Shown here piece by piece: positions 1 to 3,435 of a stretch of DNA of 3,435 bases; position 1 is the first letter of the stretch; every line of letters begins with the position of its first letter. Position numbers and translations under genes: made by a program. The stretch is from a virus (lineage: Duplodnaviria > Heunggongvirae > Uroviricota > Caudoviricetes), in IMG/VR virus record IMGVR_UViG_2778261688_000003; one strand, written 5' to 3'. The notes under the pieces were generated by a model. The model did not search any database. It was not told the DNA's origin and saw nothing but the letters and a program-made list of their open reading frames with translations.

Positions 1-489
1 ATGTTGGATGTATTTACTCCATTGTTGAAACTTTTTGCTAACGAGCCACTCGAAAGACTTATGTATACGATTATCATTTTTGGTCTCACTCTCTGGCTGA
101 TACCGAAAGAGTTTACTGTCGCATTCAATGCTTATACTGAAATACCTTGGCTCTTTCAGATTATCGTTTTTGCCTTTTCTTTCGTGGTCGCCATTTCCTT
201 CTCAAGATTGCGAGCACATATTCAAAAGCATTATTCATTACTACCAGAGCAACGAGTATTGCTTCGTTTATCTGAGAAAGAAATCGCTGTATTTAAAGAT
301 TTCCTTAAAACAGGAAATCTTATTATCACTTCTCCTTGCCGTAACCCGGTTATGAAAAAATTAGAACGGAAGGGCATCATTCAACATCAGAGTGATAGCG
401 CAAACTGTTCTTATTATCTCGTCACCGAAAAATACTCCCATTTTATGAAGTTATTCTGGAACAGCAGGAGTAGACGTTTTAATCGTTAG
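1..489 (+). CDS. sieB: Superinfection exclusion protein B (SieB-like), 162 aa, small inner-membrane protein
   Basis: Complete ORF ATG(1)..TAG(487-489) from the six-frame track. Two hydrophobic helix-length segments (MYTIIIFGLTLWLIPKEF; IPWLFQIIVFAFSFVVAISF) followed by a charged C-terminal half. Size and sequence recalled as matching Rac prophage SieB; not verified by search. Confidence 0.8.
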   Translation: MLDVFTPLLKLFANEPLERLMYTIIIFGLTLWLIPKEFTVAFNAYTEIPWLFQIIVFAFSFVVAISFSRLRAHIQKHYSLLPEQRVLLRLSEKEIAVFKDFLKTGNLIITSPCRNPVMKKLERKGIIQHQSDSANCSYYLVTEKYSHFMKLFWNSRSRRFNR

Positions 490-641
490 CTTACTGTGTG
501 CTTCTCCAACCATCGGCGCGCACCAGTTTCGGTTTTAAATGTTTTGCTTTTGGTATACGTCATGGCAGTGAACGTTCCATCCTGGTTGGGGAACACGCCG
601 CACACCAGGGATTCGTTGTTGCCGAGGTCGATTTTTTGCAT
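486..641 (-). CDS. ydaF: Small prophage protein, 51 aa (YdaF-like), function unknown
   Basis: Hand translation of the minus strand: ATG at 641..639, TAA at 488..486, product MQKIDLGNNESLVCGVFPNQDGTFTAMTYTKSKTFKTETGARRWLEKHTVS. Below the size cut-off of the supplied ORF track. The 51-aa size and position between sieB and ydaG match the Rac gene order as I recall it. Only a weak SD (GAGA). Confidence 0.6.
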   Translation of the reverse strand: MQKIDLGNNESLVCGVFPNQDGTFTAMTYTKSKTFKTETGARRWLEKHTVS

Positions 642-651
642 TTTGCGAATC

Positions 652-786
652 TCACATCTTGTTGCTACGTATAGCGACTTCTGCCTGCCAGAGATCCCAG
701 TCGTTGCTGCGTAAAGCCTGCACAGCCTGGTTGTAAGTGATACCGCAACAATCCATCAAATACTGAACTACTTCGTAATGCACCAT
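652..786 (-). CDS. ydaG: Small prophage protein, 44 aa (YdaG-like), predicted single three-helix UBA-like domain
   Basis: Hand translation of the minus strand: ATG at 786..784, TGA at 654..652, product MVHYEVVQYLMDCCGITYNQAVQALRSNDWDLWQAEVAIRSNKM. Strong SD AGGGGAGAG (revcomp of 792-800) about 6 nt upstream of the ATG. Size and position match Rac ydaG as recalled. Confidence 0.7.
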   Translation of the reverse strand: MVHYEVVQYLMDCCGITYNQAVQALRSNDWDLWQAEVAIRSNKM

Positions 787-955
787 CTTATCTCTCCCCT
801 TAACGCCGGGTGGCGGAACTAACTGCTGCACTGCAAAATTTGAATCCCGCCGTCATGTTCATACGCCTCGGGCTGGCTACTTAACCCCTTACCACTGCCT
901 GGTAACTCGAAGTATTGCCCGGCGTTCTGTGGGGCGGGGTGGGTGGTATGCTGGA

Positions 956-984
956 ACTATAGGTAATGCCTAATTGATTGTCAA
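956..984 (-). promoter_or_regulatory. PL-like leftward sigma70 promoter: -35 TTGACA (984..979), 17-nt spacer, -10 TATAGT (961..956); predicted TSS near 949
   Basis: Read directly on the minus strand: consensus -35 hexamer and a 5/6 match -10 with optimal 17-nt spacing. It points toward ydaG-ydaF and is flanked or overlapped by two palindromic operator sites. Confidence 0.5.
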
Positions 985-997
985 TAGGCTATGCCTA
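960..997. promoter_or_regulatory. OL-like operator: two palindromic sites TAGGT-AAT-GCCTA (960-972) and TAGGC-TAT-GCCTA (985-997), centres 25 bp apart
   Basis: Same 5-3-5 palindrome family as the three sites between racR and ydaS. The sites sit within the promoter spacer and directly upstream of the -35, mirroring the OR arrangement. Confidence 0.5.
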
Positions 998-1094
998 ATG
1001 TTTTGAGCGTAACCTAATAGGTGATGGCGACAGCAGAAAGTGATGGGGGGGTTAAATAACGGAATCCAGGAGTTTTCCGTCAGACCATATAAGT

Positions 1095-1571
1095 TTAAGT
1101 TCCAGTTTTTGTGATGTTCTGGCTTTTCCGTTCAGATTCAAGAGCTTTCAGATACTTACCCACTTTCATTTCCATCGCTGCTATGTAGGCGCGAACATCG
1201 TGGTCAACCCAATCTGGTTCTGTAGCATTTCCAGATAACAGGAAAGCTACAATCGCTCTTATTTCATCAGAGGCTGCTTGATAAAGGTTGTTTATATCTA
1301 AAAGTTCACTTTTTGTATCTGAATTGGTGGGGGTTGGTATGGGGTATTCGTTAAGCCCCCAATGCTCTGGACCAACAACATCAGAAAAGAAACGCCATAA
1401 TTCTGGAAGTTTATCTTTACTTATAGAGCCTTTCTTAATCCAGTCATAAATTGATGGTGGTTGGACTTTAAAGTGGCGTGCGACCTCCGCCTTTGATTTG
1501 ACGGATCCCGATGCGATTTTTTTGTTAATGGCCTGCTCTATCGCTCGGCCTAAGTCTTTACCACTAAGCAT
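1095..1571 (-). CDS. racR: Prophage repressor RacR (CI-like HTH repressor), 158 aa
   Basis: ORF from the track, minus strand, ATG at 1571..1569, TAA at 1097..1095. SD AGGAG (revcomp of 1583-1587) 11 nt upstream. N-terminal HTH-like segment (KAEVARHFKVQPPSIYDWIKKG). Divergent from a Cro-like gene across an operator-rich intergenic region. Size and sequence match RacR as recalled. Confidence 0.88.
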   Translation of the reverse strand: MLSGKDLGRAIEQAINKKIASGSVKSKAEVARHFKVQPPSIYDWIKKGSISKDKLPELWRFFSDVVGPEHWGLNEYPIPTPTNSDTKSELLDINNLYQAASDEIRAIVAFLLSGNATEPDWVDHDVRAYIAAMEMKVGKYLKALESERKSQNITKTGT

Positions 1572-1593
1572 TGCTTAATATTCTCCTATGCGC

Positions 1594-1622
1594 ATTACAT
1601 TAGGCAATCCCTACCCTTACTG
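1594..1622 (-). promoter_or_regulatory. Candidate racR maintenance promoter (PRM-like): -10 TGTAAT (1599..1594) with a poor -35 region between operator sites 1 and 2
   Basis: 5/6 -10 hexamer on the minus strand about 23 nt upstream of the racR ATG, with no recognisable -35 (CAGTAA). This would fit an activator-dependent promoter with a very short leader, but it is weakly supported. Confidence 0.25.
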
Positions 1623-1664
1623 CATTAGGCACAGCCTATTGACAATTGCGTTAGGCGTCGCCTA
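1601..1664. promoter_or_regulatory. OR-like tripartite operator: TAGGC-AAT-CCCTA (1601-1613), TAGGC-ACA-GCCTA (1626-1638), TAGGC-GTC-GCCTA (1652-1664); centre spacing 25 and 26 bp
   Basis: Three 13-bp palindromes (5-3-5) read directly from the sequence. The racR-proximal site is the most degenerate (CCCTA half-site), analogous to a weak OR3-type site. Confidence 0.6.
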
Positions 1665-1668
1665 ATAT
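1639..1668 (+). promoter_or_regulatory. PR-like rightward sigma70 promoter for ydaS-ydaT: -35 TTGACA (1639-1644), 18-nt spacer, -10 TAATAT (1663-1668)
   Basis: Consensus -35 with a 4/6 -10 that retains T at -12, A at -11 and T at -7. Operator site 3 lies in the spacer and site 2 abuts the -35. ydaS SD GGAG (1683-1686) is 8 nt before ATG 1695. Confidence 0.55.
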
Positions 1669-1694
1669 TTCTGTGTGTTTTTGGAGTTCATTCG

Positions 1695-1991
1695 ATGAAA
1701 AAAGAGAACTATTCATTCAAGCAAGCTTGTGCTGTTGTCGGTGGGCAATCAGCAATGGCTAGGCTTTTAGGTGTATCACCTCCAAGCGTAAATCAATGGA
1801 TCAAAGGGGTACGTCAATTGCCTGCCGAGAGATGTCCAGCAATTGAACGTGCAACAAGAGGTGAGGTTCTGTGCGAAGAACTTCGTCCTGATATTGACTG
1901 GTCATATTTACGACGTTCGGCATGTTGTTCGCAGAATATGTCAGTGAAGCAACTAAATGACAGTAACAAATCCTCATTTGATCATACCTGA
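1695..1991 (+). CDS. ydaS: Cro-like HTH DNA-binding protein YdaS, 98 aa
   Basis: ORF from the track, ATG 1695 to TGA 1989-1991, good SD. First gene rightward of the repressor, in the Cro position. HTH-like segment (QSAMARLLGVSPPSVNQWIKG). Size matches Rac YdaS. Confidence 0.88.
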   Translation: MKKENYSFKQACAVVGGQSAMARLLGVSPPSVNQWIKGVRQLPAERCPAIERATRGEVLCEELRPDIDWSYLRRSACCSQNMSVKQLNDSNKSSFDHT

Positions 1992-2013
1992 AACATCAAG
2001 AGGCAAATGATTC

Positions 2014-2436
2014 ATGAAAATCAAGCATGAGCACATCGAATCAGTGTTGTTTGCCCTAGCAGCCGAAAAAGGGCAGGCATGGGTAGCCAATGCAATTACT
2101 GAAGAATATCTGCGCCAGGGGGGCGGCGAATTGCCCCTGGTTCCAGGCAAGGACTGGAACAATCAGCAGAATATCTATCACCGTTGGTTGAAAGGTGAAA
2201 CGAAAACGCAAAGAGAAAAAATTCAGAAGCTGATCCCAGCAATTCTGGCAATCCTTCCGCGCGAGCTGCGTCACCGACTCTGCATCTTCGATACCCTGGA
2301 ACGCCGTGCATTACTGGCGGCGCAGGAAGCGTTAAGTACGGCAATTGATGCGCATGATGATGCAGTCCAAGCCGTTTACCGGAAAGCGCATTTCAGCGGC
2401 GGCGGTTCTTCCGACGATTCTGTCATTGTTCATTAA
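2014..2436 (+). CDS. ydaT: YdaT, 140 aa, CII-position protein of the Rac early-right operon
   Basis: ORF from the track, ATG 2014 to TAA 2434-2436. SD AAGAGG (1998-2003) 10 nt upstream. Follows ydaS after a 22-nt gap. Size and sequence match Rac YdaT as recalled. Confidence 0.88.
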   Translation: MKIKHEHIESVLFALAAEKGQAWVANAITEEYLRQGGGELPLVPGKDWNNQQNIYHRWLKGETKTQREKIQKLIPAILAILPRELRHRLCIFDTLERRALLAAQEALSTAIDAHDDAVQAVYRKAHFSGGGSSDDSVIVH

Positions 2437-2499
2437 GCAAAAGTTTCCATGCTGTTTGTGCTTATTCTAAGCCACCGGGCAGCATCATACGGGGCAATT

Positions 2500-3435
2500 A
2501 TGGCCGCATTACCATACATGCAACTGTACATAGCTGATTACCTGGCTGACACCATGCATTTGTCAGCAGAGGAGCATGGTGCGTATTTGTTGCTGATGTT
2601 CAATTACTGGCAAACAGGAAAGCCAATACCTAAAAACAGGCTGGCAAAAATTGCCCGTCTGACTAACGAGCGATGGGCTGATGTTGAACCATCCTTGCAG
2701 GAGTTTTTTTGCGATAACGGCGAGGAATGGGTGCATCTTCGGATTGAGGAAGATCTGGCATCAGTCAGGGAAAAATTAACCAAAAAATCAGCCGCAGGAA
2801 AAGCATCTGTTCAGGCCAGAAGAAGCAGAAAGGAAGCAGATGTTCAAACAAAACAAGAGAGAAATTTAACAGGTGTTCAAACAGATGTTGAAGTGGTGTT
2901 TGAACATGATGTCAACACAAAGGCAACTAATAAAGATACAGATAAAGATCTAAAAACAGATCCCCCCCTAAATCCCCCCCGGGGGAATCGAGGTGTCAAA
3001 AAGTTTGACCCTCTGGATATTACTTTGCCGAACTGGATTTCTGTCTCGCTTTGGCGTGAGTGGGTTGAATTTCGCCAGGCATTGCGAAAACCGATTCGAA
3101 CGGAGCAGGGCGCTAACGGGGCGATAAGCGGTCGCGAGACGTTACGGGCTCTGGAGGCTAAAACCGGTGCATCAAGGTATTACATAAGCACTCTCGCCAG
3201 AGAACTAGTCGCCAGTGGTGATGTTTACAATTCAGGCTACGGATTATTCCCGTCTGAGCAGGCGCGTAAAGACTGGCAAAACGCCCGCAAAAAACTATCA
3301 AGGACAAAGGTGAAGAAACCGGTTGTGGTTGATCCTGACCTTATCTGGTCATTACCAGACGGAGAAATACGCCGTTACGACAGGCGTCTGAACATAATCT
3401 GTCGCGAGTGCCTGAAGAGTGAAGTTATGCAGTGA
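2500..3435 (+). CDS. ydaU: YdaU-like DUF1376-family prophage protein (putative replication-initiator position), ending at the window edge with TGA
   Basis: Long ORF 2449..3435 in the track. The start is placed at ATG 2500 (M18) because the sequence MAALPYMQLYIADYLADT... looks like the conserved family N-terminus and a G-rich SD-like element (GGGG 2491-2494) precedes it. ATG 2449 and ATG 2518 lack an SD. Start choice is uncertain. Confidence 0.75.
   Translation: MAALPYMQLYIADYLADTMHLSAEEHGAYLLLMFNYWQTGKPIPKNRLAKIARLTNERWADVEPSLQEFFCDNGEEWVHLRIEEDLASVREKLTKKSAAGKASVQARRSRKEADVQTKQERNLTGVQTDVEVVFEHDVNTKATNKDTDKDLKTDPPLNPPRGNRGVKKFDPLDITLPNWISVSLWREWVEFRQALRKPIRTEQGANGAISGRETLRALEAKTGASRYYISTLARELVASGDVYNSGYGLFPSEQARKDWQNARKKLSRTKVKKPVVVDPDLIWSLPDGEIRRYDRRLNIICRECLKSEVMQ
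2837..2919. repeat. Iteron-like cluster inside ydaU: TGTTCAAACA direct copies (2841-2850, 2874-2883), inverted copy TGTTTGAACA (2897-2906), CAGATGTT (2837-2844, 2882-2889), degenerate copy GATGTCAACA (2908-2917)
   Basis: Read directly from the sequence. Followed by an A-rich stretch (2920-2960) and two C7 tracts. Position in the linker of the putative initiator gene resembles the arrangement of lambda ori inside gene O. Confidence 0.4.

Follow-up and report, generated by a model that had tools for sequence, protein, structure and literature searches.

Why would the repressor gene of a prophage be enclosed by two exact copies of one short sequence in opposite orientation? The question arises in a 3,435-nucleotide stretch of viral DNA, here called the window, where ATTGTCAATAGGCT at positions 977–990 (plus strand) has its exact reverse complement at 1633–1646 and the prophage repressor gene racR lies between the two. 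As set out below, the two arms are very probably the common core of two outward-facing early promoter–operator cassettes in the immunity region of the prophage Rac. An OL/PL-like cassette downstream of racR would fire leftward into ydaG-ydaF-kilR-ydaE-racC-recET-ralR-xisR-intR, and the published OR/PydaST cassette fires rightward into ydaS-ydaT.

Identity and gene order of the window

Positions 900–1720 were 100% identical to E. coli K-12 strains, in which the annotated genes of this interval are racR and ydaS. Compared with one K-12 locus by BLAST, the whole window was identical over 1–3126 except for one extra C and, judged by this identity, positions 1–3126 come from Rac, a cryptic lambdoid prophage of E. 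coli K-12, and make up its immunity region. The Rac region is present in 1988 of the 5426 complete E. coli genomes, or about one third. A scan of the window against Rfam gave nothing relevant, and its genes are the following:

1–489, plus strand: sieB
486–641, minus strand: ydaF, the next gene leftward after ydaG
652–831, minus strand: ydaG (44-aa form at 652–786 in RefSeq), the gene that the predicted leftward promoter would reach first
1095–1571, minus strand: racR, the prophage repressor gene (158 aa), enclosed by both repeat arms
1695–1991, plus strand: ydaS, Cro-like, which heads the rightward operon
2014–2436, plus strand: ydaT
from 2449, plus strand: a ydaU-like ORF

The match to K-12 ends at about position 3126, and the junction found there was collinear in 0 of the 5426 complete genomes. 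Beyond it, the 309 nt of 3127–3435 match the 3′ end of DUF977-family genes in other E. coli prophages at 100% identity. The extra base lies in a run of C at 2974–2980, seven long in the window and six in K-12; it removes the ydaU frameshift and thereby gives a continuous 328-aa ORF with DUF1376 and DUF977 (2449–3435). The junction and the extra C could stem from recombination in a Rac-like prophage, from chimeric assembly, or from the sequence having been constructed.

The inverted repeat around racR

The exact 14-bp inverted repeat, from which the preliminary description of this DNA had started, was confirmed by reading the sequence and by pattern search. With 83% complementarity, the pairing continues over 35 nt (977–1011/1612–1646), which makes it the longest inverted repeat of the window. 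Allowing up to two mismatches, no further copies of ATTGTCAATAGGCT were found in the window, for which shuffled sequences gave an expectation of 0.03. When the window was shuffled with its dinucleotide content preserved, the longest exact inverted repeat reached at least 14 bp in 17 of 500 replicates (3.4%, P ~0.03), and the exact 14-mer, taken by itself, is no more than mildly unusual. Its significance comes from the context, namely the two best promoter matches, the operator motifs, and the conservation in relatives. A separate 19-nt inverted repeat with 89% complementarity connects the ydaG/ydaF junction (647–665) with the interior of ydaS (1851–1869) and is probably due to chance.

Known and predicted promoters and operators at the arms

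The elements on the left side, downstream of racR, are:

977–990: left repeat arm, made of the last spacer base and the half-site TAGGC (plus strand) of OL2, the −35 hexamer, and two bases
956–984, minus strand: predicted leftward early promoter (PL-like), TTGACA (984–979), 17 nt, TATAGT (961–956)
959–973: OL1-like operator ATAGGTAATGCCTAA, two mismatches to TTAGGC-N3-GCCTAA, overlapping the leftward −10
984–998: OL2-like operator ATAGGCTATGCCTAA, one mismatch, 25 bp from OL1, abutting and overlapping the −35
1003–1017: possible weak third left site TTGAGCGTAACCTAA, three mismatches, 19 bp from OL2

Those on the right side are:

1633–1646: right repeat arm, in which the last spacer base of OR2 and its GCCTA half-site are joined to the PydaST −35 hexamer and AT
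1639–1668, plus strand: PydaST (PR-like) promoter, TTGACA (1639–1644), 18 nt, TAATAT (1663–1668), published in PMC11879457
1651–1665: OR1 operator TTAGGCGTCGCCTAA, a perfect palindrome overlapping the PydaST −10, footprinted (PMC9638921)
1625–1639: OR2 operator TTAGGCACAGCCTAT, one mismatch, located 26 bp from OR1 and ending in the first T of the −35 (PMC9638921)
1600–1614: OR3 operator TTAGGCAATCCCTAC, two mismatches, in the racR promoter region (PMC9638921)
1564–1578: CTAAGCATTGCTTAA, the fourth site on the right, which overlaps the start codon of racR (PMC9638921)

A scan for sigma-70 promoters returned five hits in the window. The best was the leftward promoter, matching 11 of 12 consensus positions and with a start site predicted near 949, and the second best was PydaST with 10 of 12; these two flank racR and fire outward, and the −35 of each is located inside one repeat arm. 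In a search for TTAGGC-N3-GCCTAA with at most three mismatches, the window gave eight hits against 1.4 expected, all of them in two clusters. The left one comprises 959 and 984 plus a weak match at 1003, the right one 1600, 1625 and 1651 plus weaker matches at 1539 and 1564. The two scans bear out the earlier claim that each copy consists of one operator half-site (GCCTA) plus a −35 hexamer. The left and right cassettes can be aligned nearly base by base when each is read in its own transcriptional direction.

The right-hand elements can be compared with published experiments. RacR binds the 123-bp racR–ydaS intergenic region in gel shifts and ChIP (PMC5700373), and DNase I footprints together with start-site mapping have defined operators, PydaS, and three racR promoters (PMC9638921). 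The published operator consensus is (T/A)TAGGC-N3-GCCTA(T/A), and the site at 1564–1578 is the published “operator 3,” which is also an off-target site of C.Csp231I (PMC9638921). Repression by RacR at the right cluster is established in vitro as well as in vivo (PMC9638921, PMC5700373). In agreement with this work, the right arm lies inside the footprinted region and the consensus is found here on both sides of racR; unlike the right cluster, the cluster at 956–998 downstream of racR is absent from the accessible papers on RacR operators (PMC5700373, PMC9638921). We found no mention of operators or a promoter at 956–998 in the accessible literature, nor an experiment with RacR binding at 959–998 or a transcription start near 949; older subscription papers could hold a mention of the elements. 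The left operator–promoter of Rac thus appears to be undescribed, yet it is expected for a lambdoid design. The preliminary description had seen two divergent promoters built from one cassette, and the common order of operator, −35, operator, and −10 upholds this: the right copy agrees with the footprinted RacR operators and PydaST (PMC9638921, PMC11879457), while the left copy is backed by its conservation across genera.

The arrangement suggests how the cassettes would work. In each of them the promoter-distal operator O2 ends in GCCTA-T, with that T serving as the first base of the −35 TTGACA, and the second operator O1, 25 to 26 bp off, overlaps the −10. RacR dimers on O1 and O2 would then occlude RNA polymerase at both promoters, and we propose that one repressor could therefore silence both arms. 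YdaS probably acts through the same operator sites.

Some further features surround the left cluster. The third left site at 1003–1017 is doubtful, being seen only in Escherichia-lineage loci. It overlaps a conserved ACCTAATAGGT palindrome at 1003–1022 with the half-sites “inside-out,” and this palindrome also occurs only in Escherichia-lineage loci and is absent from Mixta, Morganella, and Proteus; it may be the equivalent of OL3 or the site of another protein. On the minus-strand RNA, 14 nt past the racR stop, a hairpin ACGGAA…TTCCGT at 1059–1080 is followed by UUAUUUAA. In variants ~87% identical, an A–T pair of this hairpin has become G–C with both sides changed, a compensatory change. The hairpin could be a terminator of racR or the immunity region; as an intrinsic terminator its fold energy was no better than that of shuffled sequences (z = −1.3).

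Conservation among relatives

Comparison with relatives separates the constrained positions from the free ones. In E. coli variants ~87% identical, the substitutions were found in the operator spacers and the linkers between operators, and the half-sites, the −35, and the −10 were invariant on both sides. We compared 89 related loci, representing 52 unique left/right combinations. The core CCTATTGA(C) of the exact repeat is invariant in them, and the repeat as a whole has a length of 8 to 24 bp. The 14-mer of K-12 was seen in 30 of the 89 loci, and a repeat of 21 to 24 bp, covering the whole O2 and the −35, in about 40.

Shortly downstream of the repressor gene, the loci of distant RacR homologues likewise have two operators at 25-bp spacing together with TTGAC(A)-17-TAATAT. 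The relatives include Mixta (62% repressor identity), Proteus (60%), Morganella (57%), Klebsiella phage KpF5 (56%, with a repeat of 44 nt at 75%), a Pseudomonas phage (42%, with TTTACA as the −35), and an Achromobacter metagenome-assembled genome (MAG; 75% identity over the N-terminal domain). The −35 and −10 are kept at 17-nt spacing in Mixta, Morganella, Proteus, Achromobacter, and KpF5, and the relatives down to 56% repressor identity all keep TTAGGC-N3-GCCTAA. In the Pseudomonas phages, at 42 to 53% identity, the half-sites have drifted to TAAGG/CCTTA; only one of these phages (locus L098) has a clear left cassette, and a search for inverted repeats gave nothing convincing in the others. 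The alignments thus establish, at the level of sequence, that the left cassette is the same as the right one and conserved across genera, and from this we infer RacR binding and repression at the left cluster.

One locus stood out by its source: the RacR encoded on a 5.2-kb contig (JARKOR010000130.1) of a “Candidatus Nanosynbacter” (Saccharibacteria) MAG matches that of E. coli Rac at 100% identity. The contig is almost certainly an E. coli contamination of the bin.

Possible DNA looping between the two clusters

The cassettes could have an additional role in DNA looping. RacR tetramers on OL1–OL2 and OR1–OR2 would form an octamer bridging clusters ~640 to 690 bp apart, and such a loop would enclose racR and tighten the repression of both promoters, the autoregulation of racR, or both, as lambda CI does. 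We consider this a serious possibility, though one short of an even chance, and one that would add to the cassette explanation rather than replace it.

The 0.6- to 0.7-kb range is an efficient distance for protein-mediated loops, and clusters of paired operators are found on either side of the repressor gene. The reported octameric state of RacR makes looping a reasonable inference: the protein elutes at 151 kDa in size-exclusion chromatography, as expected for an octamer (PMC11014345). The analogous repressor of CP-933P, PaaR2, is also an octamer and has both OL and OR sets (PMC8630535). However, the octamer could be accounted for by the right-hand sites alone, as its authors ascribe it to four dimers on four adjacent sites there (PMC11014345).

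The spacing of the clusters gives no help to this reading. Measured from O2 to O2, the distance was ~640 bp in Escherichia, where the CCTATTGA anchors are 652 to 655 bp apart, and ~590 to 630 bp in other enterobacteria, but 1211 bp in Achromobacter, 1914 bp in KpF5, and ~2200 bp in a Pseudomonas phage. Neither the length nor the helical phase is thus conserved over the range of 591–655, 1211, 1914, and ~2200 bp, and the “distance and symmetry” of the arms, which the preliminary description had taken as compatible with looping, provide no specific support for it. The long distance in KpF5 comes with an inserted gene resembling the N terminus of type I restriction R subunits. A gene of ~390 aa with an HSDR_N/DUF450 domain was found between the racR homologue and the left cluster in a Klebsiella chromosome and in phage KpF5 (L010, 2129–3304; L097, 3149–4303). 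It is likely a defence or moron gene expressed in the lysogen, since its position is that of rexAB in lambda and of paaA2-parE2 in CP-933P.

The domain composition of the repressors also bears on looping. A Pfam search with RacR gave only HTH_17, at 18.7 bits and under the cut-off, and no Peptidase_S24; without the S24 domain RacR falls outside the CI/LexA S24 family. A C-terminal fold without relation to that of CI has been reported for it, and RacR works like CI but shares no homology with it beyond the HTH fold reported in PMC11014345. In the Achromobacter MAG and in Pseudomonas phages we observed fusions of a RacR-type N-terminal DNA-binding domain to a Peptidase_S24 domain (LexA/CI-like, with GDSMEP), the N-terminal domain being 52 to 75% identical to that of RacR over ~75 residues. 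The fusion loci, of which L012 and L099 were confirmed with Pfam, are:

L012, 1501–2598: RacR-type N terminus fused to Peptidase_S24
L099, 2501–3352: same fusion
L098, 2501–3361: same fusion
L100, 2501–3361: same fusion

The C-terminal domain of the enterobacterial RacR is unrelated to Peptidase_S24, and these fusions look like a domain swap between SOS-cleavable and noncleavable repressors of one DNA specificity. The operator motif and the left/right bracket are kept in L012 and L098. As the bracket persists where the C terminus of RacR is replaced by Peptidase_S24, the left cluster goes with the DNA-binding domain and not with the RacR-type C-terminal oligomerisation domain, which argues against looping. 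That the RacR octamer bridges the left and right clusters in a ~0.65-kb loop around its own gene, convergent with the OL–OR loop of lambda, is for us a slightly more tentative proposition still.

Alternative origins of the sequence identity

Returning to the cassettes as the basis of the repeat, we asked why the two arms are identical. If a recent duplication or gene conversion kept the copies alike through concerted evolution, their identity would stem from recombination and not from functional constraint acting on each copy. The longer exact repeats of 21 to 24 bp in many Rac-like prophages are in line with such a process, and an ancient common origin of the two cassettes is probable. Co-variation of the two copies, for which the preliminary description had proposed a test by aligning homologous prophages, was not borne out: a contingency table of the 52 unique combinations indicated that the O2 spacer and the three nucleotides after the −35 vary independently on the left and the right, and the arms of distant genera share only the functional core CCTATTGA(C). 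The independent variation therefore speaks against concerted evolution and against any selection for identity as such; with the nonfunctional positions drifting on their own, gene conversion was ruled out, and we regard concerted evolution as improbable. Since the operator and −35 functions dictate the base at about 11 of the 14 positions, the exact 14-bp identity is, as read from these alignments, a by-product of shared function without a meaning of its own. The remaining three positions would match through descent or by chance in the K-12 allele.

A chance 14-bp match in AT-rich regulatory DNA, a length that 3.4% of the shuffled windows did reach, is very unlikely: the match extends to 35 nt at 83% and coincides with the two best promoters and the operator clusters, and conservation across genera rules chance out. 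Least likely of all, the arms might serve in recombination, as the terminal inverted repeats of a mobile racR cassette or as the ends of an invertible switch, given that the 14-bp repeat flanks a 642-bp segment with one gene and that Rac encodes a Pin-family invertase elsewhere; we reject this because the inverted junction, searched with a synthetic query at ≥80% coverage, was found in 0 of the 1988 genomes carrying the region, no direct repeat or target duplication flanks the segment, racR is the sole gene inside with no recombinase, and the operator and −35 elements fully account for the arms.

Proposed control of the left arm

The proposed left cassette bears on the regulation of a long series of genes. 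From ydaG to intR all genes are on the minus strand, with the exception of sieB, and when RacR is lowered ydaG, ydaF, kilR, ydaE, racC, recET, ralR, xisR, and intR go up ~40- to 100-fold (PMC6765115, PMC11014345, bioRxiv 10.64898/2026.09.06.749655). We searched the 29 kb spanning all of Rac and found operator sites with at most two mismatches only at the two clusters described here. As the left cluster is the sole other RacR-type site in Rac, it offers a reason why kilR, recET, and xis–int are derepressed when RacR falls, and one RacR-controlled leftward promoter at 956–984 would be the simplest explanation of the left-arm derepression. In principle, the derepression on loss of RacR could also be indirect, for instance via YdaS or prophage excision.

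Published work credits kilR expression to transcription that starts at the racR promoter and reads through a Rho-dependent terminator located within racR (PMC4150792, PMC5793797), and the paper describing the read-through makes no mention of a promoter at the left cluster (PMC4150792). At the predicted start of the leftward leader, the minus-strand RNA of 905–948 is very C-rich and G-poor (CCACCCACCCCGCCCCAC…), and this composition is conserved in Escherichia-lineage loci. Its resemblance to a Rho-utilisation site would be in keeping with the silencing of kilR by Rho/NusG that is already known. No nut-like boxA or boxB was recognised in the 905–948 leader, and the fold energy of the PL leader was not better than that of shuffled sequences (z = −1.2).

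Comparison with known systems and implications

The layout of Rac is the lambdoid OL/PL–OR/PR design and nearly the same as that of PL933P and PR933P in CP-933P; being the textbook lambdoid design, it is conceptually nothing new. As in lambda, where OL/PL and OR/PR surround cI (with rexAB), two outward early promoters bracket the repressor gene, tandem palindromic operators overlap each promoter, and the promoter-proximal pair covers the −35 and the −10. Operator spacings are ~24 and 20 bp on the left and 24 and 23 bp on the right in lambda, and those of Rac are similar, with 25 and 19 bp on the left and 26 and 25 bp on the right. On the right, both have a Cro-like gene (ydaS in Rac) and a CII analogue (ydaT); their left sides carry recombination, kil, xis, and int functions, and each has a repressor reported to be octameric. 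Unlike CI, RacR lacks Peptidase_S24 and has a C-terminal fold reported as unrelated; the Rac operator is 15 bp (6-N3-6) rather than 17 bp, the clusters are ~0.65 kb rather than 2.3 kb apart, four sites are present on the right with one over the racR start codon, and the loop is hypothetical in Rac.

The closest parallel is CP-933P of E. coli O157:H7, which has the same YdaS/YdaT-type immunity region (PMC8630535). Its PL933P, located downstream of the repressor operon, has the same −35 and −10 as PR and three matching OL operators, and is repressed ~100-fold by the repressor and by YdaS; looping has been proposed there by analogy to lambda (PMC8630535). CP-933P differs from Rac in having PaaR2 as the repressor, operators that are GTTTAGTAA-type palindromes, and a toxin–antitoxin pair between the repressor gene and PL (PMC8630535). 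The left promoter has been demonstrated experimentally in CP-933P (PMC8630535), whereas that of Rac is a prediction from the sequence.

Some genes of the left arm are of practical weight, recET being used in recombineering and kilR causing cell-division arrest under oxidative stress, and racR is essential because ydaST is toxic. Published models have RacR act only in the racR–ydaS intergenic region and kilR expressed via terminator read-through. A near-consensus leftward promoter flanked by operators would give RacR a direct route over the whole left arm, including the excision genes 7 kb away, and the left cluster is the DNA partner needed by any looping model of the reported RacR octamer. 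If RacR does bridge the two clusters, the silencing of the toxic ydaST, the control of the left arm (kilR, recET, xis–int), and the autoregulation of racR would be coupled, and the induction of kilR under Rho/NusG limitation or oxidative stress would use the repressible promoter at 956–984 and not only read-through from the racR promoter.
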